From a virus, in the IMG/VR virus record IMGVR_UViG_3300000101_000010: DNA of 64,000 bases; one strand, written 5' to 3'. Each line of letters opens with the position of its first letter. The stretch's first letter is position 1. The notes beneath the pieces are model-generated. The model had not been told where the DNA came from, searched no databases, and worked only from the letters and a program-made list of their open reading frames with translations. Positions 13,221 through 64,000 of this stretch are shown in pieces. The position numbers and the translations under genes were made by a program.

Positions 13221-13227
13221 TTAAATA
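13221..13227 (+). promoter_or_regulatory. Late promoter box (TTAAATA) of the GT9 operon
   Basis: NTAAATA in the 58-nt gap before ATG 13268, followed by two TTGTWACAA palindromes. Confidence 0.5.
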
Positions 13228-13267
13228 TTGTTACAAGCAATTACACATATTGTAACAAGGATATAAA

Positions 13268-14263
13268 ATGACAGATAAAAGAAATACAGCTATTTTCATC
13301 AATGGTGGCGCTGGCAGAGTTCTTGCTAGTATTCCGGCACTTGAGAAGTTTGCAGAAGAAAATCCAGACGATAACTTTATCATTGTATGCGAAGGCGGTA
13401 CTGACTTTTATAAAGGTCATCCAGTACTCCATGCAAAGGCATACGATCACTGGCACAAGAATCTTTTCCAAGATAAACTTAAAGATATGAATTTGATTAC
13501 ACCTGAGCCTTACAGAGCTTGGGAATACTACAACCAACAATGTAGTATTGCAGAAGCATACGATATTCAAATTAATAATAAAGGATTACGTAAATTAAGC
13601 AAACCAATTTTAAAACTTTCTAGAGAAGAAATGTTGTTTGGTAAAAAGCTAGTAGACGAAGTTAAAGAAAAAACTAAAAAAGACAAAGTAGTTGTTTTTC
13701 AACCATTTGGTAGAGCAGTACAACATGACAATGGTGTAATTACTGACTGGAGTGGTAGAAGTTTTGAAGCTGAAAATTCAGTTAATATTGTTAAATCACT
13801 TTCTAAAAAATATGCAATGGTACACATGGCAGAGTTTGGTATTGACTTTTCAAAACACGGATGTAAAGAACCTGTAGCAAGTCCTATGGGTGCAGACCTA
13901 AGACATTGGGCAGGAATTATTGCAAATGCAGATTACTTTTTAGGCTGTGATAGTGTAGGGCAACATATTGCACATGCACTAGGTATTAAATGTACAGTAG
14001 TAATAGGATCAACTTTTCCAGTTAATGTTTCGTATCCAGAAGATAAAAACTTTGATATTTTAGACATGGGCGAAGGCGCCAGAGTATATTCACCTATTAG
14101 AGTTACAACAGATGAATATGCAGATAGAGTTAATGACGGTATCATGGCAATGAATGACAAAGTTGAAAGTGTCATTTGTGATTCAGTAACAGCAGGAATT
14201 AGAAATAAGAAAAAAGTTGGTGTAAACTACAATAGTACGACCAAAGAAGCAACTCCTGCTTAA
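13268..14263 (+). CDS. GT9-like (heptosyltransferase-like) glycosyltransferase
   Basis: N-terminal GGAGRVLASIP (cf. GT9 GxxGDxxxxxP), VVFQPFG, and C-terminal IANADYFLGCDSVGQHIAHALG, typical of GT9 GT-B enzymes. Confidence 0.7.
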   Translation: MTDKRNTAIFINGGAGRVLASIPALEKFAEENPDDNFIIVCEGGTDFYKGHPVLHAKAYDHWHKNLFQDKLKDMNLITPEPYRAWEYYNQQCSIAEAYDIQINNKGLRKLSKPILKLSREEMLFGKKLVDEVKEKTKKDKVVVFQPFGRAVQHDNGVITDWSGRSFEAENSVNIVKSLSKKYAMVHMAEFGIDFSKHGCKEPVASPMGADLRHWAGIIANADYFLGCDSVGQHIAHALGIKCTVVIGSTFPVNVSYPEDKNFDILDMGEGARVYSPIRVTTDEYADRVNDGIMAMNDKVESVICDSVTAGIRNKKKVGVNYNSTTKEATPA

Positions 14264-14265
14264 GA

Positions 14266-15102
14266 ATGAAACGCTTATTTGTATTTGGGTGTTCCTATAC
14301 ATCATGGAATTGGCCAACCTACGCAGACATTTATGCACAGCAATTTGACCACTATGAAAATTGGGGTCATGCAGGCTTAGGAAATAGAGCTATTGCTGAA
14401 CGTGTTGCAGAATGCCACGCTACAAATGAATTTGACAAAGACGATACAGTAATAGTACAATGGTCAAGTCATTTACGTTACGATTATCTTAACTTTAAAC
14501 ACACAGAACCTTGGCAAACTAAAGGTAGTATATTCAGTTATCAGAACAAAGAAGTATTTGATGACAAATGGATAGAAACTTTTTATGATGAAAAAGCATT
14601 GTTTTTACACACAATGAATAACATTATACTTACTAAGGGTTTATTAAAAGATACAAATTGTAAGTTTCATTTTACAAGTATTAGTAACTTAGAAACATTA
14701 GGAACAGATATTCCGCATCAAAAAGGACATGGTGAAAATTTAAGAAATACACCTGAACTTGCTGATGCATTTAAAGAGTTTAATCTAGAACAATATAGAT
14801 ACGTACTAGAAGGTCCTGAATGGCTAGAATCATTAGGATTACATGCTTGGAATAGACCAGACTCTAGTTGGTGGTTTGAAGGAAATGGCGAAAAATGGTT
14901 AGAGTTACACCCTAGTCCAGTACAGCATTTAAGTTTTTGCCAATCATATCTAAGCCACAACTTATCAGAACAAACACAAAAAATGATAGATACTGTTATA
15001 GATTGTAAAACTAACGACTACAAAGAAACTATTAAAAATATTACAAATTTGCAATTAGCAAATTGGGATAGAAGTTATAGAGGAATAAAAGATGCCAAGT
15101 AA
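14266..15102 (+). CDS. SGNH/GDSL-like hydrolase or acyltransferase
   Basis: Block-I-like FGCSYT, block-II-like GHAGLGN, DTVIVQWS and a C-terminal ELHPS in place of DxxH. Confidence 0.5.
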   Translation: MKRLFVFGCSYTSWNWPTYADIYAQQFDHYENWGHAGLGNRAIAERVAECHATNEFDKDDTVIVQWSSHLRYDYLNFKHTEPWQTKGSIFSYQNKEVFDDKWIETFYDEKALFLHTMNNIILTKGLLKDTNCKFHFTSISNLETLGTDIPHQKGHGENLRNTPELADAFKEFNLEQYRYVLEGPEWLESLGLHAWNRPDSSWWFEGNGEKWLELHPSPVQHLSFCQSYLSHNLSEQTQKMIDTVIDCKTNDYKETIKNITNLQLANWDRSYRGIKDAK

Positions 15103-16903
15103 AAAATCAGTATGGATCGCTGGAATTGCTAGAGGACATAACGGCGGAGTATGTTTATTAAAAGATGGTGAAATTGTTTTTTCAATTGAAGAAGAACGCC
15201 TAACAAGACAAAAATACGATGGCGGCCCATATGCAAGTATGATTAAGATACTTGAATATACAGACAAGCTAGACTTTTTAGTTGTTGCACATACACAAAA
15301 TTTAGAACAAACTGCTGGCAAAGTAGACTTTAGTGGCGATGATGTTTATACAGGACTTGCACGTAAGCTAGGACTTATTAAACGTGAAGCATACCAAGGA
15401 GGAAATCATCCTCAAGTAATTGACATGTCAAACATACACCACAAGTTACATGCCGCTTGTGCTTTTTATCGTTCAGGATTTGAAGATGCTTGTGCAGTTA
15501 TTGTTGATGGTGCTGGAACATTTATTACATTAGATATCGGCGGAGTTCCTACTACTGTTTGGGAAACAGAAAGTATTTACGATTGCAACTATCCAGATAA
15601 CTTTAAAACATTATACAAACACATTGGTGCTAATGGACCTGTTATGGGTGCATGGATGCCTGAATTTTCAAGTGAAATGTATGACGAAGATAAAGATCAA
15701 ACACACGAATTAGTTATTTCAGAAAATGCTGGCATTGTTAAAGCGTATGAAGCAGTTACAGAGTACTGTGGATTTAGTTTTATTGAAGCAGGTAAAACTA
15801 TGGGATTATTTCCATACGGTAAAGCAGACAGTCCGGCACCTAAAATATTTAGACATGATACAATGACATCACAAGCAGACAGACATGTTATTGTTCCAAC
15901 GTATCCTAATGGTGCTCATGTTAATTACAACATGCACACATACTTAACTAATCATGGCGATGAAGAAAATCAAGATGTAACATATTTAGAAAACAGACGT
16001 AACATGGCTTATCAAATACAAACAGAAAGCCAAACAGAAGTTGCAAATCTAATTCGTAAAGCAGTTGCAATGTCAGGTAAGAATAAAGTAGTTATTAGTG
16101 GCGGATACGGACTTAATTGTGTTGCTAACTATCATTACTTAGAAGAATTAAAAGACGAAGGCATTGAAATTTATGTTGAACCAGTAAGTAACGATGCAGG
16201 TACAGCAATGGGTGGTGCAATGTTAATGCATAGACGTTTAACTAAAAGTAACAAACGTCAAGAACAGCAAGAAACACTATATGAAGGACCAGCTTACAGT
16301 TATACAGATGAAGAAATTAATGCAGTTGTAGAAAAGTATAATGCAACAGTTGAAGATGCAGATAATACTAAAGCTGTAGACTTACTTGCTGATAGAAAGA
16401 TTGTTACATTATTCCAAGGACGTAGTGAAAACGGTCCACGTGCATTAGGTAATAGAACTATTATGTATGATCCAAGTGATCCTAATGGTAAAGATTATGT
16501 AAACAAAGTTAAACGTAGAGAATACTTCCGTCCGTTTGCAGGTAGTATACTAGAAGAAGATGTACATGAATGGTTTGACTTACGTGGAATGAAAAGTTCA
16601 CCAACAATGATGTATGCTGTAAACTGTCAACCTGGTATTGCTGAAAAGATTCCAAGTATTATTCACGTAGATGGCACATGTAGAATTCAAACAGTTAATA
16701 GAGATCAAAACAAACATTACTATGACATTATCAAAGCGTTCAAAGAACGTACTGGTACTAGTATAATTTTCAATACTAGTTTTAACCTAGGTGGCGAACC
16801 GTTAGTTGAAACACTAGATGATGCTGTACGTACACTACGTAATAGTGATATTGAATATCTTTATTTGCCAGAATACAATAAGCTAATTACAGTAAACAAT
16901 TAA
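15092..16903 (+). CDS. O-carbamoyltransferase, NodU/CmcH/TobZ family
   Basis: EEERLTRQK, HHKLHAACAFY, VDGAG, SGGYGLNCVAN, DAGTAMG, GPRALGNR, KRREYFRPFA, HVDGTCRIQTV, NTSFNLGGEP. Confidence 0.93.
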   Translation: MPSKKSVWIAGIARGHNGGVCLLKDGEIVFSIEEERLTRQKYDGGPYASMIKILEYTDKLDFLVVAHTQNLEQTAGKVDFSGDDVYTGLARKLGLIKREAYQGGNHPQVIDMSNIHHKLHAACAFYRSGFEDACAVIVDGAGTFITLDIGGVPTTVWETESIYDCNYPDNFKTLYKHIGANGPVMGAWMPEFSSEMYDEDKDQTHELVISENAGIVKAYEAVTEYCGFSFIEAGKTMGLFPYGKADSPAPKIFRHDTMTSQADRHVIVPTYPNGAHVNYNMHTYLTNHGDEENQDVTYLENRRNMAYQIQTESQTEVANLIRKAVAMSGKNKVVISGGYGLNCVANYHYLEELKDEGIEIYVEPVSNDAGTAMGGAMLMHRRLTKSNKRQEQQETLYEGPAYSYTDEEINAVVEKYNATVEDADNTKAVDLLADRKIVTLFQGRSENGPRALGNRTIMYDPSDPNGKDYVNKVKRREYFRPFAGSILEEDVHEWFDLRGMKSSPTMMYAVNCQPGIAEKIPSIIHVDGTCRIQTVNRDQNKHYYDIIKAFKERTGTSIIFNTSFNLGGEPLVETLDDAVRTLRNSDIEYLYLPEYNKLITVNN

Positions 16904-16907
16904 AGTC

Positions 16908-17537
16908 ATGGAAGATGACTTTATCCAATACTTTGATATAAAGATTCACTGGACCAAAGACACAGACGGCTGTGGCAACACAATGGTTGATGACTTTATT
17001 GATGCAACACAAGCAATAAGCGAAGATAAAAAATTTAACAATGTACTAGAATGGTGTAGTGGACCAGGCTTTTGGGGGTTTGGATTACTTGCAACAGGTA
17101 TAGCAAACAAAGTTACATTGGCAGACATCTATGAGCCAACTCAGCTTCCTGTATTACAAACAATAAAAGAAAATAACTTACAAGATACTGCACAATTTTT
17201 TCTAAGTGACAACTTTACAAATATTCCGCAACAAAAATTTGACCTAATTGTTGCTAATCCACCTCACTTTAACATGGATCCGTATGTAGCACACTATGAC
17301 GATCCAAGGAAATATAAAGATTTAGACTGGTCTATACATAAAAATTTCTTTAACAATGTTAACAATTACCTAACCGACGATGGAATTATTGTACTTGCTG
17401 AAAATGTATGGGGATCAAATCCTGACACATTCCAAGACATGATTACTGATAACAATTTACAAATTACACATCATTTTGTAAGCAAACAATACCCTTTAGA
17501 TATGTGGTATTTAGGTATTACACGCTTACACCACTAG
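16908..17537 (+). CDS. Class I SAM methyltransferase (HemK/PrmC-like NPPx motif)
   Basis: VLEWCSGPG motif I and DLIVANPPHF motif IV. Confidence 0.8.
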   Translation: MEDDFIQYFDIKIHWTKDTDGCGNTMVDDFIDATQAISEDKKFNNVLEWCSGPGFWGFGLLATGIANKVTLADIYEPTQLPVLQTIKENNLQDTAQFFLSDNFTNIPQQKFDLIVANPPHFNMDPYVAHYDDPRKYKDLDWSIHKNFFNNVNNYLTDDGIIVLAENVWGSNPDTFQDMITDNNLQITHHFVSKQYPLDMWYLGITRLHH

Positions 17538-17560
17538 CAATCGTAACAGTCCATAATTAG

Positions 17561-17567
17561 GTAAATA
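17561..17567 (+). promoter_or_regulatory. Late promoter box (GTAAATA)
   Basis: Intergenic, upstream of SD GAGG and ATG 17594. Confidence 0.6.
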
Positions 17568-17593: not shown

Positions 17594-19294
17594 ATGAGCT
17601 TCGATATCACCAAATACTTTAGACGCGGACAAAATAGTACGATTGAGTTTCGTAATGGAACCAACTTGTCTTATGCAGGGCCAAGCTATTCGTTAGTAGA
17701 GGCAGGAACAGAATTAGACCGTTGGTACGTTGGTAGTTACTTTGGTGTAGAATACACTATTGCATGTGATGTAAATAGTGAACGCAAAGAAGTAATTAAA
17801 GCAATGGCAACAGCTAGTACTAGTAAAGCAAATATTGTTGTTTATGGACGTAGTAATTTAGGAGATGACCTATTACAATTAGAAGTTGAAGTTACAGATT
17901 CGTACTTTAAACTTATGGCATATCCAAGAGTACAAGATGACTCAACTGCTATTGCAGGAGCAAAAGTAATTTACTCAGCAAACTATTATGCAACACAGAA
18001 CGAACCTACAGCAACACTATTAGGATCAAACGTTGCGGCAAACGCACCAGTTTATACATTAAATCCAAGCACTACAAATACTGGAGAACTTGGACAAACA
18101 GTTACAGTAGAATTAGTTACATCAAATGTACTTGCGGGTACAGTTTTACCTTATACAATTTCAGGTATACAAAGTGCAGATATAGGTGGATTAAATCTTA
18201 CAGGAACATTTATTGTTGGAACAACAGATATTCTTAGTTTCCCTATTACTGTTGACTTAGCAACAGAAGGTCAAGAAGTAATGACAGTTAAACTTGATAA
18301 CAATCAAGCTACTACTAGTATTGTTATCCAAGATACAAGTACAACACCAGCTGTCAGTTACGGACTTACAACTAGTGCGGCAACAGTTGATGAAGGTGGA
18401 ACATTTACTATTACATTAACTTCTGAAAACGTTGCATCTGGCACACTAGTTGGATATACAATTACAGGAGTTGACTCAGCAGACATAGGCGGAGCAGACT
18501 TAACAGGTAACTTTGAGATTGGAACTGTAGAATCAATTGTTTATACTGCAACTGAAGATCTATTAACAGATGGTGCAGAAACATTCCAAATGTCAATTGA
18601 CGGTACAAGTACAATCGTTGAAGTTGCAATAGGCGACACAAGTTTAAGTCCAATTATTCCAAGTTATACATTAGGATCATCTACTAACACAGTTAACGAA
18701 GGCGGAGTATTTACAATTACACTTTCAACATCAAATGTTGAAAATGGTACAGTTTTACCTTATACAATTTCAGGTGTAACAGGTGCAGACATAGGTGGCG
18801 CGGCATTAACAGGAAACTTTGTTGTTGGAACAACGGATAGTATTACACTTACTGCAACAGCTGATGCAACAACAGAAGGCGATGAAGGATTTGTAATTGC
18901 ACTAGACAATGGCGAATCATCTAAGAGTATTGCTATTATTGATACAAGTACAACACCAGGAAACAGTTATACAATAGCAACTTCAAATAGCGGCTCAGCT
19001 TCATATACATTAAACGGCTCAGATAGATTAGGTACAGTAAATGGTGCTAACCAAACAGTAACAATTAATGTTAATGATACAGTTACATTTACTATGAATG
19101 CACCAGGACATCCGTTCTATATTAAAGCACAAAACTCAACAGGTACAGGTAATATTGTAACAAATCCATTAGCAACAGGACAAGGTGCATCATCTTCAGG
19201 ATCAGTAGCTTGGACACCTTCAGCAGTAGGAACTTATCATTATAACTGTCAATTCCATGGAGCAATGCATGGATTAATAGTGGTACAAAGCTAG
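17594..19294 (+). CDS. Virion protein with three Calx-beta-like repeats and a C-terminal cupredoxin-like domain
   Basis: Three ~101-aa repeats (EGG.FTITL...NV..GT..PYTI.G...ADIGG..LTG.F); C-terminus GHPF...YHYNCQFHGAMHG. Confidence 0.7.
   Translation: MSFDITKYFRRGQNSTIEFRNGTNLSYAGPSYSLVEAGTELDRWYVGSYFGVEYTIACDVNSERKEVIKAMATASTSKANIVVYGRSNLGDDLLQLEVEVTDSYFKLMAYPRVQDDSTAIAGAKVIYSANYYATQNEPTATLLGSNVAANAPVYTLNPSTTNTGELGQTVTVELVTSNVLAGTVLPYTISGIQSADIGGLNLTGTFIVGTTDILSFPITVDLATEGQEVMTVKLDNNQATTSIVIQDTSTTPAVSYGLTTSAATVDEGGTFTITLTSENVASGTLVGYTITGVDSADIGGADLTGNFEIGTVESIVYTATEDLLTDGAETFQMSIDGTSTIVEVAIGDTSLSPIIPSYTLGSSTNTVNEGGVFTITLSTSNVENGTVLPYTISGVTGADIGGAALTGNFVVGTTDSITLTATADATTEGDEGFVIALDNGESSKSIAIIDTSTTPGNSYTIATSNSGSASYTLNGSDRLGTVNGANQTVTINVNDTVTFTMNAPGHPFYIKAQNSTGTGNIVTNPLATGQGASSSGSVAWTPSAVGTYHYNCQFHGAMHGLIVVQS
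18137..18775 (+). repeat. Intragenic direct repeat, 30 nt identical (18137-18166 and 18746-18775)
   Basis: ggtacagttttaccttatacaatttcaggt occurs twice, 609 nt apart (two protein repeat units). Confidence 0.85.
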
Positions 19295-19296
19295 TG

Positions 19297-19303
19297 ATAA
19301 ATA
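19297..19303 (+). promoter_or_regulatory. Late promoter box (ATAAATA)
   Basis: Intergenic, upstream of SD GGAG and ATG 19320. Confidence 0.65.
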
Positions 19304-19319
19304 CTATTGGAGAAACTAA

Positions 19320-20348
19320 ATGGCAGTAATTAAATCACCCTTCCAAGCTCAGTATGGCTTTAAAAGCCCGGGTTTCATAGTCGATGACGTAGGTAATGTA
19401 CAACTTCGTACACTTACATATACAGTTACAGAAGATGTTGTAGATACTGCTGGTGACTTTTTATTCCGTCAAGCTGGTAATAGCTTTACTATTGATGGTA
19501 AAACAGATCCAGATGACGAACCTAACTTATTAGCAAACCCAACGTTTGAATTAACTAGGGGAAGTAGTTATGTTTTTAATTTATTTTTAAGAGAATTAAA
19601 TGAAGCCGGTGATATTACTGGTAACATGACATTGAATTTTTATAGCTTTGATGGATCAGTATACCAACCATATACTTCAGGGCTATCACACACATCTTTA
19701 GATGGTACTACAACTGTAACAGGTATTGACGCTCAAAGTAAGTTTGAAGGTAAATTAACTTTTACTGTACCTGATAACACACCAGCATCATTATGGTATG
19801 GTGATGGCGATCAAATACCATTAGTAGAAATTACAGTTATTGATCCACTAGTTAGTGGTATTGGTAACTTTAGTAGAATTACAACAACAGGCAATTTAAC
19901 AGCCCAAGGCGAAAATGCAGTTATTACACTTGCACCTAGTGGAAGTTCAGGAACAGTAGTTATTAATCCAGCAAACGGTGGAACACTTAGTAACATGGAT
20001 ATTACTGCTAATCTATTAACAGTAAATTCAACTTCAAACTTTACAGGTTTAAATGCAGATGTAAATGTAAGCCCAGCAGGCAATGGTAGATTAACTGTTG
20101 CTCCATCGGGTGGCGGTAATATAGACGGTGTAAACATTGGTTTAACTAAGGCGGCTTCGGTTACCACTAATAACTTAACAGCGACCTCAGGAACAATAAA
20201 TAACACTACAATTGGAGCAGTAACTCCGGCTAATGCAACGTTTGCTACAGCACAAGTACAAGCAAAACCAACATCGGCTACGACAGTTACTAACAAAAAA
20301 TATGTGGACAGCAGGGCATCAGCAATGGCTGTTGCTTTCGGAATGTAG
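19320..20348 (+). CDS. Virion structural protein (tail-fibre associated)
   Basis: LTRG..Y.F...LTFTVP..TP..LWY module, Thr/Asn/Gly-rich stalk and NKKYVD fibre motif near the C-terminus. Confidence 0.6.
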   Translation: MAVIKSPFQAQYGFKSPGFIVDDVGNVQLRTLTYTVTEDVVDTAGDFLFRQAGNSFTIDGKTDPDDEPNLLANPTFELTRGSSYVFNLFLRELNEAGDITGNMTLNFYSFDGSVYQPYTSGLSHTSLDGTTTVTGIDAQSKFEGKLTFTVPDNTPASLWYGDGDQIPLVEITVIDPLVSGIGNFSRITTTGNLTAQGENAVITLAPSGSSGTVVINPANGGTLSNMDITANLLTVNSTSNFTGLNADVNVSPAGNGRLTVAPSGGGNIDGVNIGLTKAASVTTNNLTATSGTINNTTIGAVTPANATFATAQVQAKPTSATTVTNKKYVDSRASAMAVAFGM

Positions 20349-20356
20349 GAAAACAA

Positions 20357-23300
20357 ATGGCAAAGAAAAAAATTGACTCGTATATATTTCAACCAGGTAT
20401 TCCTGTTAGTGAAAATAGATTTCCATATGCATACAAATTAATTAACGATAATACAGACTTTATTGTTGACGAATTATCAGCATGGCTTACTGCACAAGTT
20501 GCGGCAAACACAGGAAATCCGGGTTCAATATGGTACAACTATACATACAACGATGTGCTATGTAGACGTGATACACGATATAACTTACAAGGTACAGACG
20601 GAGTAACAGGTGTACTTTGGGACCTACGTTATGGCGGAAACTATCAAGCACGTTTCTTAGCAAGTAAGTACTGGATCAATTCAACACCACAGATTGATGG
20701 TGATAGAGCTCCTGAAATTGCGGCAAAGAACTTTGTTGTTAGTTTAATTAACAACTACATTTTACCACAGGTTGCTTACACAAGTTTACAAGCAGATCCG
20801 GCTACAACTACACAAGTTTATGATAACGGCAGTAGCTACGAAACAGGTACTGATGCAAGAATAACAGAACTAATGGGTATCATTACAACTGTTATTGCAG
20901 GCGGACTAGATGTTATTCCACCACTAGTGAGATCACAGATTTCAAGTGTTAAGATTCAGACTCGTGTTCCGGCAAATGATTTACTATTAATTACAGATTC
21001 AACAAACAATGAAATTTTATATAACTTTAGTGATCCTGATTTAGGTGCTAGTGTTGCATTCCAAACAGATGATACTTCACAGTTAACTAAAGGTGTTGAA
21101 GAAGACTTTCCAAAGTTCCTTGAAAGAACTGGTACAGTTACTACAATCTTTCTTGCTAAAGATACAGACAACAGAGTTTATTCTCCAAGAGCAGTAGCAC
21201 TATTAGAAGCAAATAAATCGTTTTTACAAAAAGAAACAGTTGCTTGGATTGCAGGCAAAGTTGCGGCAAGTACAAGACAAACTCCATCTGCGGCGGCATA
21301 CAGTCCTGCAAGTGGAAAGTTAGTTTTAACAATGGCGGCGCATGGATATTACAGAGGCGATTATATTAAAATTGCTACAGGTGGATTAACATTTACTTGT
21401 GGATATGACAACCATGCTACTGAACATGCTTATCCAAGAGCAAGTGGAGTGCCTAATGATGTAGGAACAGATCCATTTTATAATAAACCAATTTTAGTTG
21501 AAAGTTCTACTACAGACACAGTTACAGTTAATATTGGTATTTCATCTGATACTTCAGAACATACATTTGTATCAGCAACAACTAACGCAATTTCAGATGT
21601 ATGGTACAACTACACATACAATACTGCTAAGTGTGAAAGAGACATGGGTCTTAATGTTGAAGGTATTACACACGATATTAAATATTCTGGAAATACAAAA
21701 ACACACTTTAATGCTAGTAAGTATTGGGTACAGACTACGCCACAAATTGACGGCGATAGAATGCCAGAAGTTTTAGCAAAACATTTTTGTAGAGATTTAA
21801 TTAACGGTTATATTTTCTCTAACACAGTTTATACAACTGCACAACCAGTTGTAGGTAGAGTTACACAAAATACTATTTTACAAATTAGTGAATTAAATGT
21901 TAGTCAAAGAGTAACAGAATTATTTGCTGTTATTACAAATGTTATTGAACACGGTTTAAGCGTACTTCCAATTAAAGAAGAAGTTAAACAGTTTTACGAT
22001 ACAGATGATGTACAAATATTTATTGACCAGGGTGATGTTATTACTAGACCACATGACTTTGGTACAGATGCTATTGAACGTATGCGTGTTAGTAATTCAG
22101 TATCTATGCTTGATGCTGACTTTGAGTATGGGTTACAGCCTACGAAGTGGCAAGCGATTGCTATGCAAAGAGGATACCCAAGTATTTACGAAGTACCAGG
22201 TACTGATACAGTTGTATCAACAGTTGTAACAGATGCTTCAGCGGGTACAAACGGTGTTGGACAAAGTTTAATTACTGTAACTACAGTTGGTCCACATGGT
22301 ATTGTAGCAGGTACTCCAATTACAATTAAGGCACTAGAAAATAGTGTTGCTGGTGCAAGTAGAGCAGAGGGATCGTTTATTGTTTCAACTGTTCCAACTA
22401 ACAGTACATTTACATTCTTTGCTAAATCAAAAGTTGGCTCAACTAACGGTGAAGTATTATCAACATACTATACGCAGTTAAGACAAGCAGGATTTTATAC
22501 AGGCGCGGCAATTGGTCAACCACAGTTTACTATTTTATCACAGGGTGCGGCAGGTACATGGATTAACCCACTAGCGGCAGAAACAGGGTCAAGTATTGTT
22601 ACTTGGTCAGGAACTGCTCCAGAAGTTGGTGCTCCAGTTATTAATGAAGGCGGCCAAGTAGCAACAGTTGGTACATTTGGTGCCGCAGACGCAAGTAGAA
22701 CAGGCGGAACATATACAGTTTCAACAGCTTTTTCAAACAGTATTGCGGCAGATTTAATTACAGGTACGTATAGTATTGTTGTTAGCGGAACTGGTGAAGT
22801 TACAAGTATTACAATTTTAAATCCAGGTAGAAATAACGCCGCAGGCGATATTCTTACTGTTGTAGACGGTTCATTGGGTGCTGGTGGCGGTGCAGACTTT
22901 ACGTTTGTAGTTGCTAGTATTACACAAGGTGCTGGTATTGGAAGTGGTGCTCAGGTTACAAGTATAACAGGCGGAGTTATTGGTGTATCAGATAACGGTG
23001 GTATTTTAAATACACTTGACGTTAATGGAGATTATCCAATTGGTACAAACGCAATTACTCTTGTTGACGCAACAGGTATTACACAAGGTGAAGCAATTGA
23101 TAGAGGTGACGGAACAGCGATTCATGTTACTACTATTGTAGGTAACACACTTAACTTTGATGGAAATACTACAGGGGCGATTGTTGGTAACACAGTAACA
23201 TACGCAGGAATTACTGGTACTAATTATGAATCAGCAGGTTCAGGTGCAACGTTTAATATTGATAGAGGTAATCCTACTTTAGGACAATACACAGTTGCAA

Positions 23301-32017: not shown

Positions 32018-32024
32018 TATTTAG
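32018..32024 (-). promoter_or_regulatory. Late promoter box (CTAAATA on minus strand) for the Nudix-hldE-hldD operon
   Basis: tatttag on the + strand, 9 nt upstream of the Nudix ATG, overlapping the gp15 stop. Confidence 0.55.
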
Positions 32025-35436: not shown

Positions 35437-35462
35437 AGTTTTATTTTATGAGGAGTCAGACT

Positions 35463-44894: not shown

Positions 44895-44901
44895 GTAAAT
44901 A
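44895..44901 (+). promoter_or_regulatory. Late promoter box (GTAAATA), 5 nt before the terL ATG
   Basis: Immediately after the terminator; no SD before ATG 44907. Confidence 0.65.
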
Positions 44902-44906
44902 ATAGT

Positions 44907-46496: not shown

Positions 46497-46504
46497 ATAT
46501 TAAC

Positions 46505-51940: not shown

Positions 51941-51947
51941 TTAAATA
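51941..51947 (+). promoter_or_regulatory. Late promoter box (TTAAATA) for the second sugar cluster
   Basis: 5 nt before ATG 51953; no SD. Confidence 0.6.
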
Positions 51948-51952
51948 CTAGT

Positions 51953-52765: not shown

Positions 52766-52766
52766 C

Positions 52767-53447: not shown

Positions 53448-54124
53448 ATAAAGTATTTGTAGGATACGATCCAAGAGAAGATATTGCATACCAAGTATGT
53501 AAACACAGTATCCAAACTCAAAGTAAAAACGTAAGTGTACATTCATTAAAACAACAAGAGTTAAGAGACTCTGGTTGGTATAAAAGACCAATTGACAAAC
53601 TAGCAAGTACTGAATTTACATTCACAAGATTCCTAGTTCCAGAGCTTACAAACTTTAAAGGTTGGGCATTGTTTATAGACTGTGATATGATTTTACAAAC
53701 AGACATACAAAAATTATTTGATCAAGCAGACGACAAATATGCTGTTATGTGTGTTAAACATGATTACGAAGTACAAGAAGGTACTAAGATGGACGGACAA
53801 AAACAAACAGTTTATCCACGTAAGAATTGGTCAAGCGTAATGCTGTTCAACTGCGAACATCCACAAAATGCTAGACTTACACAAGACATGGTAAACAGTA
53901 ACGAATTAAACGGAGCATACTTCCACAGATTTAGTTGGCTTGAAGATGATGCGTATCTAGGAGAATTAGATCACACATGGAACTATCTAGTAGGTGTGTA
54001 TGATGATATTGAAAAGCCTAACCTTATCCATTATACAGAAGGTGGACCTTGGTTTGAGAACTATCGAAATTGTGAATTTGCTCAAGAATGGAAAGACAAT
54101 TTATATCAAATGATGGATAGATAA
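53444..54124 (+). CDS. GT-A glycosyltransferase (GT8-like)
   Basis: VGYDPRE, STEFTFTRFLVP, FIDCDM (DxD), YPRKNWSS, HYTEGGPW. Confidence 0.75.
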   Translation: MNKVFVGYDPREDIAYQVCKHSIQTQSKNVSVHSLKQQELRDSGWYKRPIDKLASTEFTFTRFLVPELTNFKGWALFIDCDMILQTDIQKLFDQADDKYAVMCVKHDYEVQEGTKMDGQKQTVYPRKNWSSVMLFNCEHPQNARLTQDMVNSNELNGAYFHRFSWLEDDAYLGELDHTWNYLVGVYDDIEKPNLIHYTEGGPWFENYRNCEFAQEWKDNLYQMMDR

Positions 54125-54125
54125 T

Positions 54126-55124
54126 ATGAGTGAAAACAATACAGGCGAATGGGATACCAGAGTGATTAGACCACATTTAAAAGAAATGATAGATAAGATT
54201 TTGCACAGCGTTGCAACTGGAGAACAAAGGCATGCTGTAGAAGCAGTTTCAGAAGTTTTCCAAGAAGTAAAAAACCCTCCAGTAATATGTGTAGACAGCG
54301 GAATTAAAAAAGTAGAAAAGAAAGTTAAAGGTTCTTTTGGACTTATTGATTCTTTTGTAATGGGCATGGCACTAGGTAGTGGCGGTAAGTATATTCGTGC
54401 TGACGATGTTGATTGGGAAGATGATACTCCATTACTAGTTAGAGGACTAGGCAAACAAAAATTAATTAAGATGTGTATTGAACGTGGTAGAGATTTCTAC
54501 TTTATGGACACAGGTTATGTAGGTAACAATCCAAGTACACGTAATCCAAATGGTAAAAAAACTTATCATAGAATTGTAAAAAATGCATTACAAAACTTAC
54601 ACATGCCTGACAGAGAGCAACCAGGATCAGATAAATGGTATGGTGGCGGACGTTGGAATTCATTAGCTATTCCATTTAAAGACGCAACACCAGGACGTAA
54701 AATATTAGTAGTACCACCAAGCGAAAAGGTAATGAAATACTTTGATCAAGACTTGGACACATGGATCGATCAAACTATTGCTACTATTAGAAAGAACACA
54801 TCAAGACCTGTACAGCTACGTAAGAAGCCAAGTAGAGAAGATCGTGTTAGTGTTAACACAATGGAGCAGGCACTTGCAGATGATGTACATTGCCTAGTAA
54901 CATACAACAGTATTGCCGCACTTGAAGCAATGATATATGGTAAACCTGCCGTAGTGCTAGGACCAAATTGTGCTCAAGATATTTGCGAAACTAGTTTAAA
55001 GAGAATTGAATTTGCTGAGCATCCAGGGAGGAAACAGTTAACTTATTTGTGTAGATACCTATCTAATAACCAATTTACATATGATGAAATGTTAAGTGGT
55101 TACGCCTGGAGCATAGTAAAATGA
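54126..55124 (+). CDS. KpsS/KpsC-like (capsule-synthesis, GT-B) protein 1
   Basis: FMDTGY, ILVVP, QLRKKP, VTYNSIAALEAMIYGKP. Confidence 0.6.
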   Translation: MSENNTGEWDTRVIRPHLKEMIDKILHSVATGEQRHAVEAVSEVFQEVKNPPVICVDSGIKKVEKKVKGSFGLIDSFVMGMALGSGGKYIRADDVDWEDDTPLLVRGLGKQKLIKMCIERGRDFYFMDTGYVGNNPSTRNPNGKKTYHRIVKNALQNLHMPDREQPGSDKWYGGGRWNSLAIPFKDATPGRKILVVPPSEKVMKYFDQDLDTWIDQTIATIRKNTSRPVQLRKKPSREDRVSVNTMEQALADDVHCLVTYNSIAALEAMIYGKPAVVLGPNCAQDICETSLKRIEFAEHPGRKQLTYLCRYLSNNQFTYDEMLSGYAWSIVK

Positions 55125-56068
55125 GAGTTATAGGTTACACTAAAGTTATACCACCTGGGAACAAAGGCAAGTTGCCTAAGCCGGGTAGACCAATTAAACC
55201 AAATCATAAATTAGATATTATCAAAAATTTTATATCAGGAGTCAGGGTGTCGGGGGACAACGGGTTGGTATATGATGGATTTGATACAATGGCATGTGAC
55301 GTAGCTGTTATGCAAGGCTTTATGCACGAAGACAGTCAAGCAGTACCACACATTAACTTACGCAGAAGTATTGCAAGTAACACAGCTAACAAACGTTTTA
55401 TTACAGCAGATAGTAACTTATTTTTATACAAAGCAAAACAAAATGAACCACATCATTACTTACGTTATAGTTATGATGGAGTGTTTGCTAACACCGCAGA
55501 GTATTGCAATGAAGAGCCAGGTGATGCACAATGGGAAAAGATACAACGTGACTTAGGTGTTAAACTAAAGCCATGGGACTATAATAACAGAGATAATATT
55601 TTATTATGTTTACAACGTAATGGTGGTTGGAGCATGAAAGGTAAAGATGTTGTTACTTGGGCTAATACTAAAATTGCAGAGATTAGACAGTACACAACTA
55701 GACCTATTATTATTAGACCACACCCAGGAGATAAAAAAGCACCTGAGTATGTAAAAAGAATCACAGGCGACAACATTAGAATTAGTTTTCAACCAGACAT
55801 TGCACAAGACCTAGCAACTGCACATTGTTCTATTGTGTACAACAGTAGCCCAGGTGTAGCTAGTATTATAGAAGGTGTTCCTGTTATATGCGAAGACTGG
55901 CAAGCAAGTCAAGTACAAGAAGTATGCTTTCAAAGAATAGATGCATTGTCAAAATTAAGACCGTTTGATAGAGAAAAATGGATTAGAAAAATATCACAAT
56001 GCCATTGGAGTTTTGCAGACTTAAAAAGTGGCGAAGCATGGGAATGGATGAGGAGATACGTAAAATGA
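55121..56068 (+). CDS. KpsS/KpsC-like protein 2
   Basis: ILLCLQR, IIIRPHPGD, VYNSSPGVASIIEGVP. Confidence 0.6.
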   Translation: MRVIGYTKVIPPGNKGKLPKPGRPIKPNHKLDIIKNFISGVRVSGDNGLVYDGFDTMACDVAVMQGFMHEDSQAVPHINLRRSIASNTANKRFITADSNLFLYKAKQNEPHHYLRYSYDGVFANTAEYCNEEPGDAQWEKIQRDLGVKLKPWDYNNRDNILLCLQRNGGWSMKGKDVVTWANTKIAEIRQYTTRPIIIRPHPGDKKAPEYVKRITGDNIRISFQPDIAQDLATAHCSIVYNSSPGVASIIEGVPVICEDWQASQVQEVCFQRIDALSKLRPFDREKWIRKISQCHWSFADLKSGEAWEWMRRYVK

Positions 56069-56880
56069 GAATAAAATGTATAACAACATTTCATCAACCA
56101 GGATTAGAAGAATACGGACAACGTCTTATTGATAGTTGGGCTAAGAACGTACACCCGGCAGTTGAGCTAGTAGTATATGCAGAAGATTGTATTCCTGTTG
56201 TACCACCAGGTGCAAATATCAAAGTTGTAAATGCTAAAGAAGTATTACCAAAACTTAATGCATTTAAAGAAAGACACAAAGACGATCCTAAAGCAAATGG
56301 TATATGTCCTTGGCCTGCTAGACGCCCAAGAGATCATCATAAGAAGTTTAAGTGGGACGCAGTACGTTTTGCAAACAAAACATATGCAGTATTTGAAGCC
56401 GCACAAGATCCTAACACAGATATTCTAGTTTGGATTGACGGTGATACATATGTACACAGTCCTATTACTTACGGACAATTTAGAAATTTAATACCTGCAT
56501 CACAATGGTTACACTACTTAGGTAGAAATAAAAAATGGCCTGAGTGCGGGTGGTACGGACTTACACTTAGAACTCCAGGGTGCGATGCATTCCTAAAAGA
56601 GTTTGAAAGAGTTTACGAAGAAGCTGATGACGGAATCTTTAAGATGGAAGAATGGCATGACAGTTATGTGTTTGATCAAGTCCTAAAGAAAATTAGAATA
56701 GAACATAAAAACATTAAAGACTTCAGCGGACATCTTGTAAACGGAGAAGGTCATCCGTTAATTAATTGTGAACTTGGCGCATTCTTTGATCATCTTAAAG
56801 GTGTAAGAAAGCAAGAAGGTAGGAGTCGAAAGAAAGACTTACTACAGCCAAGGAGCGAGTCATATTGGAATGAAGTTTAG
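56065..56880 (+). CDS. GT-A-fold glycosyltransferase-like protein
   Basis: WDAVRFANK, LVWIDGDT (DxD), EWHDSYVFD, DHLKG. Start refined to 56065 (ATGA overlap, AGGAG). Confidence 0.6.
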   Translation: MRIKCITTFHQPGLEEYGQRLIDSWAKNVHPAVELVVYAEDCIPVVPPGANIKVVNAKEVLPKLNAFKERHKDDPKANGICPWPARRPRDHHKKFKWDAVRFANKTYAVFEAAQDPNTDILVWIDGDTYVHSPITYGQFRNLIPASQWLHYLGRNKKWPECGWYGLTLRTPGCDAFLKEFERVYEEADDGIFKMEEWHDSYVFDQVLKKIRIEHKNIKDFSGHLVNGEGHPLINCELGAFFDHLKGVRKQEGRSRKKDLLQPRSESYWNEV

Positions 56881-57721
56881 TTTATTTACAGAGAATGGTG
56901 CACAGAATAGTAAACCAGTGTTTGACGCTTTTGCAACTAGTTTGCATAGTGCTGGCCATACCGTTACTGTTAATGACTGGGATTGCGATGTTGCTGTTAT
57001 TTGGAGTGTGCTTTGGTTTGGCAGAATGGCTGGAAACCAAAAAGTCTGGGAACACTTCCGAGCAATAAACAAACCTGTAATAGTATTAGAAGTAGGCGGA
57101 ATTCAAAGAGGCACTACATGGAAAGTAGGCATCAATGGTATTAACAGCGATGCTAACTTTGGTGCTAAAGGCAACGACAGTACTAGAGCAGACTTACTAG
57201 GACTTGAAGCAAAACGTTGGACTAACGATGGCCAACATATTCTTGTATGTGGACAACATGATAAAAGTTTACAATGGCAAGGCATGCCACGTATGAGTAA
57301 TTGGTTTCTAAACACTTACGATGAAATACGCAAACACACAGACCGTCCTATAGTATTTAGACCACACCCACGTTGTAGACTAGACCACATTGAACGTGGA
57401 CTTAGACATGTGTATAGACAAGAGCCTAACCATATTAACGATACATACGATGACTTTGATTTAGATTTTAACAACGTATGGGCTACTGTAAGCTACAGTA
57501 GTAATCCTGGTATACACAGTATACTAAACGGCGTTCCAGCGTTTGTAGGTACCAGCTCGTTAGCGTATGACGTCGGTAATGACATAGACTTCTTCCACGA
57601 TATAGAAGCACCCTTACAACCAGACAGGCGACTATGGTTGAATGACTACGCATACACAGAATGGACTTTGGATGAAATAGCCCAAGGTTTACCATTAAAA
57701 CGCTTGACTTCTGAACTATAA
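56870..57721 (+). CDS. KpsS/KpsC-like protein 3
   Basis: VLEVG, ILVCGQHDKS, IVFRPHP, VSYSSNPGIHSILNGVP. Confidence 0.6.
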   Translation: MKFSLFTENGAQNSKPVFDAFATSLHSAGHTVTVNDWDCDVAVIWSVLWFGRMAGNQKVWEHFRAINKPVIVLEVGGIQRGTTWKVGINGINSDANFGAKGNDSTRADLLGLEAKRWTNDGQHILVCGQHDKSLQWQGMPRMSNWFLNTYDEIRKHTDRPIVFRPHPRCRLDHIERGLRHVYRQEPNHINDTYDDFDLDFNNVWATVSYSSNPGIHSILNGVPAFVGTSSLAYDVGNDIDFFHDIEAPLQPDRRLWLNDYAYTEWTLDEIAQGLPLKRLTSEL

Positions 57722-60506: not shown

Positions 60507-60527
60507 TATGAAAACAGAGGATTATAA

Positions 60528-61034: not shown

Positions 61035-61737
61035 CAGTATAACAGTAGACGTATATACAAACCAACAATACGCTTACGATCAATGTAAGCCGCAGTTGGC
61101 AAAGAAGTATATACCCGAATGGTGGAAAAGTTTACCAGCAAGTAGACCTACGCACCAAGAGTTCTATGACGACTTGCCGATAAGTTCAATGAAACAATGT
61201 CCTGCTATTAATGATATATTAAAGGCAGGAATTATTTTCCCTAGTTGGTGTGAACTACATATGCGTGTAGGTATTGGAGGAGAGAAAGAAGTAAGAGTCT
61301 TTCCTGACTTTATTCCTGCATTGCCACACGACGAACGTGACTTTGATTTTCACAAGCCTGGACTTGCACATGTTAAGTTAGGCTCACCGTGGTTTATGAA
61401 AGAAACTACAGGTGTAAAATGGGTATGGATCAAACCTGATTGGCACACAAAGAATCCATTAGCATACTGGGGCGTACCTGGTATCACAGAGTATAAACAT
61501 CAACATAGTATCTTAAATAACATTATGGTTCCATACGGTAGTGAAGTTAAAATTGAAGTTGGCGAACCTTGGTTACAACTAGTACCAATGAGTGACAAAC
61601 CAATAAAACTTAACGTCCACTTAACAGACAACCAAACTATGCAGAATTTAAATACAGTTAATATATCCTCCGTAGGAAGTTATATGAAATCGATACGTAA
61701 TGTTGGGAAGCAAAGGAAATTAGATGAAAACAATTAG
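61018..61737 (+). CDS. Hypothetical protein (PEWWK...KQCP...P.W type)
   Basis: Beta-rich ORF resembling those in large aquatic phage accessory regions; start at 61018 or 61003. Confidence 0.55.
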   Translation: MGFLSNSITVDVYTNQQYAYDQCKPQLAKKYIPEWWKSLPASRPTHQEFYDDLPISSMKQCPAINDILKAGIIFPSWCELHMRVGIGGEKEVRVFPDFIPALPHDERDFDFHKPGLAHVKLGSPWFMKETTGVKWVWIKPDWHTKNPLAYWGVPGITEYKHQHSILNNIMVPYGSEVKIEVGEPWLQLVPMSDKPIKLNVHLTDNQTMQNLNTVNISSVGSYMKSIRNVGKQRKLDENN

Positions 61738-62290
61738 TGAAGAATACGCTCGCCAGTTAGCACAACTACACAGCGAGAAAGCATCTTTCGGTGACGCTAA
61801 AGGATTAAAGGCTATCGAAAAATGGATTAAAGAATTTAAACCTCAGTCTATTTTAGACTATGGTTGCGGCAAAGGTGGAGTTGTATTAGCACTCAAAGAA
61901 TCGTATCCAGAGATTAGTGCAATTGGTTGGGATCCAGGGATGCCAGACTTTAATATTCCCGATAACAAGAAGCCTGCTGATATGCTTATTAGTACAGACG
62001 TACTAGAACATATTGAGCCTTTCTTTTTAGATGATGTACTAAAAGATATTCACGAACTGTTTAACAAAAATGCATTTCTTATTATTGCTACTAGCCCAGC
62101 TAAAAAGTTTTTACCAGACGGACGTAATGCACATTTAATTGTAGAGAATCCGGGTTGGTGGAAAGAAAGAATTGAAAAATGTATGCCAGGTGTAAAAATT
62201 GTACATCACGAGTTCTTTGAAAAGACAAGAACAGATAAGCGTGGCGGCGTACATGAGAACAACAAATATATTGTAGTGTTGGAGAAATAG
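61724..62290 (+). CDS. Class I SAM methyltransferase
   Basis: ILDYGCGKG, GWDPG, DMLISTDVLEHIEP. Confidence 0.85.
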   Translation: MKTISEEYARQLAQLHSEKASFGDAKGLKAIEKWIKEFKPQSILDYGCGKGGVVLALKESYPEISAIGWDPGMPDFNIPDNKKPADMLISTDVLEHIEPFFLDDVLKDIHELFNKNAFLIIATSPAKKFLPDGRNAHLIVENPGWWKERIEKCMPGVKIVHHEFFEKTRTDKRGGVHENNKYIVVLEK

Positions 62291-62291
62291 T

Positions 62292-63011
62292 ATGAGCTTT
62301 ACTAATTTAATTACAGAAGCTATTGATTCAGTATACGATGATATCAAAGCAAACAAGACTCCTACTGTATGTGAGATGGGCAACCAGCGTTTAAAAAATA
62401 ATAAGTCACGTGCTAAAATTTTTAATGCACGTGGTATTCATACACATGCTAACACTACTAAAGAATACTTTCAAGCCTTAGGCTTTGGAAGATATCTTGC
62501 TATCGATGTTAATACAGAGAAAGATGCTGTTGCAATGGATCTTAATTTAGATTGCAAACAAGCATATAACTTTACAGAACAGTTTGACCTAGTAACTAAT
62601 AACGGCACAGGCGAACACGTATTCAATCAGTACACAGTATTTAAAAACATACACGACATGACTAAGGTTGGTGGATACATGATCCATGTACTTCCTTTTT
62701 ATCGTTGGGTTGATCACGGCTTTTATAGCTTTCATCCTAATTTGTTTTTCTGCCTAGCACACCAAAATGATTATGAGATGCATGGCGTATGGATTGGTAC
62801 TAGTGACGGACATCACATTGAGAAGCTAGGACAAAAGTTATCACGTGACAAAGGTTACAGAGGTAAGTTTAAATTAGATACATGGGAAAGAGATCCTATG
62901 GTTGTTGCTATTATGAAACGTAAGACTGATGCAGAATTTGAGATGCCACAGCAACATTTATATGCAGGTGATAATATATCTAGCGATGAGATTGCGAACC
63001 GTTATAAATGA
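62292..63011 (+). CDS. SAM-methyltransferase-like protein
   Basis: CEMGNQ, IDVN...DLN, FDLVTNNGTGEHVFN, GGYMIHVLP...DHGFY. Confidence 0.6.
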   Translation: MSFTNLITEAIDSVYDDIKANKTPTVCEMGNQRLKNNKSRAKIFNARGIHTHANTTKEYFQALGFGRYLAIDVNTEKDAVAMDLNLDCKQAYNFTEQFDLVTNNGTGEHVFNQYTVFKNIHDMTKVGGYMIHVLPFYRWVDHGFYSFHPNLFFCLAHQNDYEMHGVWIGTSDGHHIEKLGQKLSRDKGYRGKFKLDTWERDPMVVAIMKRKTDAEFEMPQQHLYAGDNISSDEIANRYK

Positions 63012-63778
63012 ACCAGTATAGTGTCCTCCAAAACTTTAAGCCAAGTGACTTAAGGTTGAGCCCGTTTCCATATATCGTTATTGATGAAGTCCTACCATGG
63101 GACTTGTACAATAAGCTAGAAGCAGAATACCCAGAACAGTACATGACCAAAGGCGAAACACATGGCTTTGGTACTGCACGTTACGTTGATCATGACTTCG
63201 ATACTTACGCAACAGTAAGTCAAGCATGGCAAGAATTTGCCGCATATTCAACTAGCAGAGAATTTAAAAACGAAGTAATAAGAGCATTTCGCACAGGACT
63301 TGAAGCACACTATCCACCAGGATCGTTTTGTCCAGAAGGATTATATACCAAGTATATGCGTAGTGATGTTGCTCCACGTAGAGCTCCTAAGAGCGGATCA
63401 ATTAGAATGGAAATGCAGTTTGTATTAAATGCAATAGACAATATACAAATTAGAACTCCGCATGTTGATCAATCAAAAGAATTGTTTGCAGGTTTGTTTT
63501 ACATGAAGAAGGCAGATGACACAGGCACAGATGGTGGTCTAAATGTTTATAGAAACACAGCAGGTAAGCAATGGCGCAGAGTAACAGGTCGTGAAGCAGT
63601 TGCAGAAGATATTGAAGTTGTAGAACGTGTTCCATATAAAGCAAACACTATGGTTATGTTTTTAAACACAGTAGATAGTTTACACGGAGTTGAACCTCGT
63701 GACAATCCAAATACTATTAGACGTTATGTTAATATAGACGGACACGTACAAGAGAAATTATTTAAGTTCGTTGATTAG
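63008..63778 (+). CDS. 2OG-Fe(II) oxygenase
   Basis: PHVD (HxD), GLFYM...GG.L, SLHGV...RRYVN. Confidence 0.8.
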   Translation: MNQYSVLQNFKPSDLRLSPFPYIVIDEVLPWDLYNKLEAEYPEQYMTKGETHGFGTARYVDHDFDTYATVSQAWQEFAAYSTSREFKNEVIRAFRTGLEAHYPPGSFCPEGLYTKYMRSDVAPRRAPKSGSIRMEMQFVLNAIDNIQIRTPHVDQSKELFAGLFYMKKADDTGTDGGLNVYRNTAGKQWRRVTGREAVAEDIEVVERVPYKANTMVMFLNTVDSLHGVEPRDNPNTIRRYVNIDGHVQEKLFKFVD

Positions 63779-63787
63779 GAGATGAAT

Positions 63788-64000
63788 ATGAAAGCAGGAA
63801 AAGTTTGGGGACAAACTGAATTAATACATGCAAACGGTGTACTAGAGTTTCATCGCATTGAATATAAAGCAGGATTCAAATGTAGTGAACATGCACACGA
63901 ATATAAATGGAACGGATTCTTTGTTGAATCGGGCAAGATGATTGTTCGAGTTTGGCAAGATGATCAAGGACTAGTTGATGAAACTATTCTTGAAGCAGGA
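63788..64000 (+). CDS. Cupin, 3'-truncated (not in the ORF track)
   Basis: SD AGGAG, then MKAGKVWGQTELIHANGVLEFHRIEYKAGFKCSEHAHEYKWNGFFVESG..., open to the window end; KxWG and HxH cupin motifs. Confidence 0.75.
   Translation, partial: MKAGKVWGQTELIHANGVLEFHRIEYKAGFKCSEHAHEYKWNGFFVESGKMIVRVWQDDQGLVDETILEAG

Follow-up and report, generated by a model that had tools for sequence, protein, structure and literature searches.

Why a marine phage should carry three clusters of sugar enzymes in the region that encodes its particle is the question raised by IMG/VR virus record IMGVR_UViG_3300000101_000010. Here, we analysed a stretch of 64,000 nt from this record (~37% GC; hereafter the window), where an uncultured marine myovirus has its virion genes; their products include gp15-, gp14-, and gp13-like neck proteins, sheath, tube, and large terminase. 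A sequence-only reading had placed the clusters at 13268-17537 (cluster 1), 28069-32008 on the minus strand (cluster 2), and 51953-57721, with further tailoring genes at 61724-64000 (cluster 3), and had proposed that together they glycosylate the virion as one system built on ADP-heptose. Open reading frame, family, and structure searches bear out the three clusters, their families, and their coordinates, including HldE/HldD donor enzymes, a GT9-like glycosyltransferase (GT), five further GT-like proteins, and many tailoring enzymes. Tentatively, and with somewhat less than even confidence, we favor a reading in which clusters 1 and 2 form a heptose decoration module carried by the phage, its acceptor most likely a host-recognition protein of the virion; cluster 3 apparently stands apart. 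The families, folds, gene order, conservation, and box pattern described below are observed here, and from these observations we infer the identity of the donor, the late timing, and the acceptor.

The GT9-like enzyme and its proposed heptose supply

Cluster 1, on the plus strand, opens with a GT9-fold, heptosyltransferase-like enzyme (13268-14263; phrog_8954, cyanophage T4-GC 302). Searches of the PDB with its single sequence or a profile gave weak GT9 matches only, but its AlphaFold2 model has a predicted local distance difference test score (pLDDT) of 94.5 and the top 30 Foldseek matches in the PDB are all GT9 enzymes, Veillonella GT9, WaaF, WaaC, and TibC among them. When the GT-B fold was examined with VIA, the protein was nearest to solved GT9 enzymes: GT9 chains scored Z 18.6-25 (25.0 for 3tov, 22.1 for WaaF, 20.2 for TibC, and ~20 for WaaC) and other GT-B chains at most 12.4. 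Thus TibC, a protein heptosyltransferase, is as near in fold as WaaC. An exhaustive profile-free search yielded 429 representatives of the family, of which 71 full-length sequences were compared. In all 71, the C-terminal ADP-heptose-binding motif D-(S/T)-G-x-x-H is present with D228, S229, and H233 invariant, aligned with D261-T262 and H266 of WaaC and with the motif DSGLMH of WaaF; 31 of these diverse relatives match PF01075 (best E 1.2e-8). Close relatives were found only on phage-like contigs, including some mis-binned in metagenome-assembled genomes (MAGs) of unrelated taxa, and a genome scan with a narrower alignment did not reveal the family in any genuine cellular context. It is nonetheless common, with more than 3,000 homolog clusters in marine metagenomes. 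Judged by its modelled fold, the 13268 protein is a divergent branch of GT9 for which ADP-heptose transfer is predicted.

The donor would come from cluster 2, a minus-strand run of abutting or overlapping genes. It begins 12 nt downstream of gp15 and is coupled to gp14-gp15 by overlaps or gaps of at most 12 nt. A NUDIX hydrolase, assigned by family match, comes first (31562-32008), followed by an HldE-like fusion of heptose-7-phosphate kinase and heptose-1-phosphate adenylyltransferase (30417-31562; 381 aa), an HldD-like ADP-heptose 6-epimerase of the SDR family (29602-30420), a small metal cupin (29205-29618; cyanophage T4-GC 307, annotated "cysteine dioxygenase"), a phrog_2696 protein weakly resembling 2-oxoglutarate (2OG) oxygenases (28631-29293), and a 2OG-Fe(II) oxygenase (28069-28644; PF13759, TIGR02466). 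The HldE-like protein has both domains, kinase then nucleotidyltransferase (PfkB at residues 49-244, cytidylyltransferase-like at 257-370), and its best models are HldE for the family and TIGR02198 and TIGR02199 for the domains. The HldD-like protein scores 238.8 bits against TIGR02197 and 56.6 bits against GalE, the next SDR family. By analogy, the HldE-like enzyme would phosphorylate and adenylylate a heptose phosphate, the HldD-like enzyme would epimerize the product, and the GT9-fold enzyme would transfer the heptose. A denV-like (endonuclease V) gene lies within the heptose operon both of a 335-kb relative (contig C57; locus L130, 13965-14573, minus strand) and of cyanophage S-SSM7 (locus L001, 17364-17918).

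The remainder of cluster 1 would dress the sugar. An O-carbamoyltransferase of NodU/TobZ/NovN type (15092-16903) would add a carbamoyl group; further tailoring may come from the oxygenases, from a conserved protein for which esterase-like activity is a lead only (14266-15102; DUF6071/GDSL, SGNH esterase or acyltransferase; no Pfam hit, kept in relatives), and from a HemK/MTS-type (amino-group) methyltransferase homologous to the PF05175 protein of S-SSM7 (16908-17537).

Is this one module or two? In S-CAM1, S-CAM3, S-SSM7, and P-SSM2, the homologs of the GT9-like enzyme, carbamoyltransferase, nucleotidyltransferase, kinase, cupin, and epimerase are contiguous, and because the cyanophage homologs of clusters 1 and 2 adjoin each other, we treat the two as one unit. 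Window and Kyanoviridae are collinear over ~33 kb at 27-63% protein identity. The common order runs from fiber, 106-aa, and 110-aa proteins through three Cys-rich proteins, a chaperone, GT9-like enzyme, and carbamoyltransferase to the heptose-supply genes (nucleotidyltransferase, kinase, cupin, and epimerase) and a large virion protein, these last in a lineage-specific order, and ends at gp13; a further fiber protein is also common to both. In the window, a long fiber and two small fiber proteins (fibers at 1920-8033, within 1920-13209), then three proteins of ~10% Cys and two chaperone-like proteins (8752-13209), all on the plus strand, precede cluster 1. Both sets are candidate acceptors or context, and both are collinear with S-CAM1, S-SSM7, and P-SSM2. 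Between clusters 1 and 2 lie plus-strand genes for virion proteins of 566, 342, and 2571 aa with 21-25% Ser+Thr (17594-28072), the largest 45% identical over 1137 aa to a virion structural protein of S-CAM1. One metatranscriptome contig omits 1237 nt within the gene for the 2571-aa protein (24037-25275), probably a variation in repeat number among strains.

The cyanophage counterparts are T4-GC 302-308 (P-SSM2, S-SSM7, S-CAM1, and S-CAM3). They share with the window the GT9-like enzyme (45-63% identity), the carbamoyltransferase (46-64%, T4-GC 303), and homologs of the kinase, nucleotidyltransferase, cupin, epimerase, 2OG oxygenase, and PF05175 methyltransferase, in the same place between the fiber/Cys-rich cassette and gp13. 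By contrast, the window divides the set into two operons separated by 10 kb of virion genes, fuses in HldE order the kinase and nucleotidyltransferase that form two genes in cyanophages, adds the NUDIX gene, and has no homolog of the short cyanophage "phosphoheptose isomerase" gene. The sequence-only reading had suggested a comparison of synteny across related genomes, and the linkage between heptose module and fiber cassette is indeed kept in Kyanoviridae as well as in jumbo relatives, namely five members of the window's own lineage and the 335-kb contig. Moreover, every record in which a homolog of the Cys-rich protein was detected (E<=1e-5) was a phage record with the GT9-like gene as well. 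In the literature these genes have been annotated as lipopolysaccharide (LPS) or cell-wall genes (PMC3037559, PMC7378029, PMC12801897); Sullivan et al. (2010) listed T4-GC 302-308 as "LPS genes" of unknown function, possibly "stuffer DNA" (PMC3037559). The genomes of P-SSM2 and S-SSM7 are enlarged partly by them. Experimental studies of phage heptosylation or of cyanophage heptose genes did not turn up in our literature searches.

Such a set of enzymes could instead make a soluble product, a tailored heptose-containing small molecule or free oligosaccharide with a signalling, protective, or antibiotic-like role, with no covalent decoration of anything. Among solved structures, the carbamoyltransferase has its nearest homologs in NovN, GdmN, and TobZ, all of them O-carbamoyltransferases of natural-product pathways; TylF-type methyltransferases, cupins, and 2OG oxygenases are typical tailoring enzymes, a tryptophan halogenase sits inside the S-SSM7 cluster, and some antibiotic pathways are fed by ADP-heptose. 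This explanation would, however, leave the constant place of the genes in the fiber cassette of two phage lineages unaccounted for, and we saw no scaffold-forming enzyme (polyketide synthase, nonribosomal peptide synthetase, or cyclase); we consider it improbable.

Late-type boxes, fiber linkage, and the candidate acceptor

The sequence-only reading held that an NTAAATA box heads all three clusters and the structural genes, and this is what we find. On the plus strand, a box at 13221-13227 (TAAATA at 13222) lies 41 nt before the start of cluster 1 and is kept in four relatives with differing flanks (L091, L093, L094, and L101). The minus-strand box of cluster 2 (32018-32024; TAAATA at 32023), kept only in the closest relative, lies 10 nt before the NUDIX gene, inside the last codons of gp15. 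That of cluster 3 (51941-51947, plus strand; TAAATA at 51942) precedes the ATG by 5 nt, a TAAATA-N5-ATG arrangement retained in 13 diverged relatives whose encoded proteins are 70-98% identical. Across the window, 17 of the 33 plus-strand copies of TAAATA fall within 60 nt upstream of a gene start, stretches that make up ~5% of the window. The genes so preceded encode fiber, neck, sheath, tube, and terminase proteins in addition to the sugar clusters, and no box stands ahead of the SSB, UvsX, UvsY, helicase, or deoxynucleoside monophosphate (dNMP) kinase genes of the window. By its likeness to the T4 late promoter TATAAATA, the TAAATA box is a putative late promoter. TAAATA also lies exactly 5 nt before an ATG, leaving no space for a ribosome-binding site, at 44896-44909 and 46494-46507 as at 51942-51955, and the kept spacing before cluster 3 suggests leaderless late messages. 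Metatranscriptome contigs from four studies span portions of the fiber genes and of clusters 1 and 2. They are assembled, possibly include DNA, and carry no information on starts, strand, or timing, and we leave them out of the case for late expression.

In the proposed mechanism, the module would be co-transcribed with fiber and neck genes from these late-type boxes, and the candidate acceptors, Cys-rich fiber-tip proteins or Ser/Thr-rich fibers, would be made simultaneously, on the model of TibC/Aah, which heptosylate adhesins encoded alongside them. We favor virion decoration because of the linkage to the fiber-tip cassette in two phage lineages, the late-type boxes, and the operon coupling to neck genes, and also because the GT9 branch is phage-specific and cyanobacterial LPS reportedly lacks heptose and Kdo (3-deoxy-D-manno-oct-2-ulosonic acid) (PMC4515613). 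On that report, the classical GT9 acceptor would be missing in the hosts of the cyanophage homologs. Thus the earlier claim of virion-protein glycosylation stands insofar as it is reasonable to look for the acceptor among virion proteins, since Kyanoviridae have this heptose module beside the same fiber/Cys-rich/chaperone cassette; the acceptor itself we infer.

The same linkage has a second possible cause. Carbamoyl-heptose (and, from cluster 3, Kdo-type residues) might be added to a lipid-linked glycan of the host at the cytoplasmic face, with host exporters moving the product outward. The fiber receptor would then be masked, and superinfection blocked or progeny kept off debris. Genes that modify a receptor would co-vary with fiber genes, which would account for their proximity. 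The published annotation of the cyanophage homologs as LPS or cell-wall genes points the same way, and bacterial GT9 and KpsC/WbbB homologs act on lipid A-core, lyso-phosphatidylglycerol, and O-antigen ends (PDB entry titles). Against envelope remodelling, however, stand the late-type boxes and neck-gene coupling, a poor timing for replacing an existing outer-membrane glycan, the report on cyanobacterial LPS cited above, the failure to find close GT9-like homologs in genuine cellular contexts, and an Arg at the position of the catalytic Asp of WaaC. In its favor, 7-O-carbamoyl-heptose occurs in the Pseudomonas LPS core. We regard it, including its supposed effect on superinfection or progeny, as rather unlikely but still a serious rival.

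Several observations nevertheless weigh against virion decoration by a heptose module. The first two concern the acceptor: linkage to fiber genes is equally expected if the enzymes modify the fiber's receptor on the host, and soluble enzymes are also usual for LPS-core and capsule-linker transferases. The sequence-only reading had noted the lack of membrane-type sugar enzymes, and no membrane helix is predicted in any of the sugar enzymes here. The lack of a flippase or polymerase is weak evidence, since the GT9 and KpsC enzymes of bacteria also work in soluble or peripheral form and depend on exporters of the host. Other points concern the transferase. The window protein meets no Pfam threshold and scores 16.9 bits against TIGR02201, and the position of the catalytic Asp13 of WaaC (motif G-D-x-x) is occupied by a near-invariant Arg (R17), a placement that comes from a low-scoring segment of a profile alignment (G-A-G-R-V in the family against S-M-G-D-V in WaaC). 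With an Arg there, the enzyme would depart from both known types of GT9 in either its chemistry or its acceptor.

Donor synthesis raises similar doubts. The 381-aa HldE-like protein, compared with an equivalog model of 475 positions (NF008454), scores 279 bits against a curated cut-off of 521, and its domains also fall short (180/345 for domain I and 155/181.5 for domain II), as does the HldD-like protein against TIGR02197 (cut-off 274.6). No GmhA (SIS_2) turned up in the window or on any phage contig searched; the related fragments among these are 11-53% complete, and a gap there says little. A GmhB-like phosphatase was absent from the window and seen only in C57, where a HAD-superfamily phosphatase (PNK3P/HAD hits; the superfamily of GmhB) closes the heptose operon and speaks for the donor assignment. 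The isomerase and phosphatase steps would probably fall to the host or to the cupin of the module; this cupin, or the PMI-type cupin encoded at 51953, might substitute for GmhA as sedoheptulose-7-phosphate isomerase. Finally, the two halves of the module do not diverge in step. In one relative (G002), the HldE-like protein is 56% identical to that of the window, though the GT9-like protein is 94% and the terminase 96% identical. In another (G004), it is the other way round (72% and 50%). These discordant identities indicate that the two halves exchange independently.

Cluster 3 among recombination genes

Does cluster 3 belong to the same system? Its first gene, on the plus strand like all that follow, encodes a HIGH-type nucleotidyltransferase (HldE domain II/TagD-like) fused to a PMI-type cupin (51953-52765). 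This enzyme is generic for the HIGH family (HldE domain II, TagD, and ECT among its members), its specificity is uncertain, and it is the cluster's only tie to heptose. Then come a TylF-type sugar O-methyltransferase (52704-53447), a retaining GT8 glycosyltransferase of GT-A fold (53444-54124), and three paralogs, the first (54126-55124) and third (56870-57721) assigned by paralogy to a KpsC/WbbB-fold transferase family. The second (55121-56068), placed by model and Foldseek, has the fold of a retaining beta-Kdo transferase: its model has a pLDDT of 92.1, and KpsC, KrkA, and WbbB entries take all of the first 24 places among its PDB matches (E 8.6e-8 to 1.9e-5; template-modelling (TM) score 0.36-0.56). 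Within the family, H201-P202 and several Asp are invariant or nearly so, the latter putative counterparts of KpsC D160/WbbB D232. Between the second and third paralogs lies a nucleotide-diphospho-sugar transferase (GT-A), a lead only (55999-56880). The cluster is followed by a conserved protein without a family match, which also comes after the transferases in C57 (57739-59046); neither it nor the KpsC-like family matched the PDB in single-sequence or profile searches. Beyond the helicase, a further stretch (61724-64000) carries a pair of class I methyltransferase genes, a gene for a 2OG oxygenase, and, as a partial gene (63863-64000), the beginning of another T4-GC 307-type cupin.

Here, the earlier picture of a single ADP-heptose system is not supported in that form. 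The structural-gene setting does not extend to cluster 3, whose flanks are SSB, UvsX, UvsY, peroxiredoxin, and helicase genes, and one ADP-heptose system no longer describes a set in which cluster 3, with beta-Kdo-transferase-fold and GT-A enzymes among recombination genes, is missing from phages carrying the other two: the paralog family is absent from cultured cyanophages, including those with clusters 1 and 2. In C57, KdsA-like (PF00793) and KdsB-like (PF02348) genes lie 2-3 kb downstream of cluster 3; KdsA and KdsB were not found in the window, nor PF00793 in the closest relatives (G002-G005). On this gene content, the most fitting reading of cluster 3 is that of a second glycan-building module, inherited separately and lying outside the heptose system; as donor it probably uses a CMP-activated ulosonic acid together with hexoses. 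The cluster of C57 (locus L127, 3741-4700) adds a GSCFA-family (SGNH-related) protein, an FkbM-type methyltransferase, and extra transferase paralogs, and cluster content therefore varies between relatives. The peroxiredoxin-like gene (51353-51937) lies immediately upstream of cluster 3.

A location among SSB, UvsX, UvsY, and helicase genes also bears on DNA hypermodification, in which a sugar would be placed on a modified base of the phage DNA and later carbamoylated and methylated. Phages are known with glycosyl or carbamoyl groups on their DNA bases, and a T4 gp1-like dNMP kinase is encoded between gp13 and the sheath gene (35448-36056). To our knowledge, however, GT9, HldE, and KpsC-type enzymes have no role in DNA modification. 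The window showed neither a TET/JBP-type family nor one of DNA methyltransferases, and there was no thymidylate-synthase-type hydroxymethylase in five related records of at most 186 kb, fragments whose silence is weak evidence. The words GCAGC and GCTGC, among the most under-represented in the window, have no site there against ~78 expected under a maximal-order Markov model. This total avoidance suggests escape from a GCWGC-specific restriction enzyme, to which the DNA would then still be exposed. Hypermodification is the least likely of the rivals, and we give it very little credence.

With virion decoration by clusters 1 and 2 as the preferred reading, a more specific proposal can be framed for the "LPS genes" of marine cyanomyoviruses and of the window's jumbo-phage lineage, namely that they serve not LPS but the post-translational modification of virions, a phage-specific GT9 branch of the Arg type placing carbamoyl-heptose on Cys-rich, receptor-binding fiber tips and, in the jumbo phages, a second module adding a beta-Kdo-type oligosaccharide. 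In this specific form, the proposal is doubtful.

The carrier phage and related systems

What kind of phage carries these genes? The carriers of T4-GC 302-308 are cyanophages; that of the window is a phage of ~335-355 kb with a PA5oct-/Rak2-like terminase, nearest at the DNA level to terminases of PA5oct- and Rak2-type jumbo phages. The lineage is an abundant jumbo phage, since contigs of related phages reach 330-355 kb, a 186-kb relative is only 53% complete by CheckV, and terminase relatives in IMG/VR number more than 600. The fiber-to-neck region (1920-35400) is collinear with Kyanoviridae, yet the terminase is of jumbo type; this gene content may reflect an exchange of the fiber module, or else a marine picocyanobacterium as host. 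psbA was not found in related fragments, whose completeness of 11-53% means that its absence proves little. Contigs of the lineage, including the 335-kb one, are binned in MAGs labelled Neomarinimicrobiota, Methanobacteriota, Chitinophagales, Actinomycetota, and others, which looks like viral contamination of those MAGs.

If fiber tips are indeed decorated, a chemical layer would be added to the way in which very abundant ocean viruses recognize hosts, keep stable, or are camouflaged. Phage virion glycosylation would extend beyond mycobacteriophages, and the module would provide the first case of a virus particle heptosylated by phage-encoded enzymes, one that helps to determine which hosts are recognized in the ocean. 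The hypothesis is directly testable on the cultured carriers S-CAM1, S-SSM7, and P-SSM2.

Among known systems, the closest in concept to clusters 1 and 2 is TibC/Aah with TibA/AIDA-I. Both have a GT9-type fold (272 residues aligned between the 13268 model and TibC), a transferase gene beside genes for adhesion proteins, and a soluble, cytoplasmic enzyme. They differ in that sequence identity is ~12%, the Cys-rich neighbors in the window are not beta-helix autotransporters, and the acceptor here is only a candidate. WaaC and WaaF (CAZy GT9) match the window enzyme in fold (Z 19.4-22.1) and carry the same D-S/T-G-x-x-H donor motif, and heptose with carbamoyl is a known chemical combination from the Pseudomonas core; the window enzyme has an Arg where WaaC has Asp13, and its genes are phage-borne, behind late-type boxes, and among virion genes. 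For cluster 3, the counterparts are KpsC, KpsS, WbbB, and KrkA (GT99/GT107), which provide the top PDB matches of the second paralog and may share the H-P pair that is near-invariant in its family, with KdsA-/KdsB-like genes nearby in C57. Sequence identity is, however, 11-14% at TM ~0.36-0.56, there are no Pfam hits, the paralogs stand three in tandem, and neither export genes nor KdsA/KdsB were found in the window.

Viruses that decorate their own particles provide the wider frame. Chloroviruses and mimiviruses use their own glycosyltransferases, nucleotide-sugar synthesis, and methyltransferases to decorate the particle in the cytoplasm, and work by Freeman and colleagues in 2023, as cited in PMC12801897, reportedly described virus-encoded virion glycosylation in mycobacteriophages. 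The concept is alike; enzyme families, sugars, and hosts differ, and decoration, chemically proven in those systems, is a proposal here. Overall, the gene set is a new example of a module that cyanophage genomes have long been known to carry, and what is new here is the virion-heptosylation reading, the Arg substitution in a GT9 branch, and an added beta-Kdo-transferase-like module.

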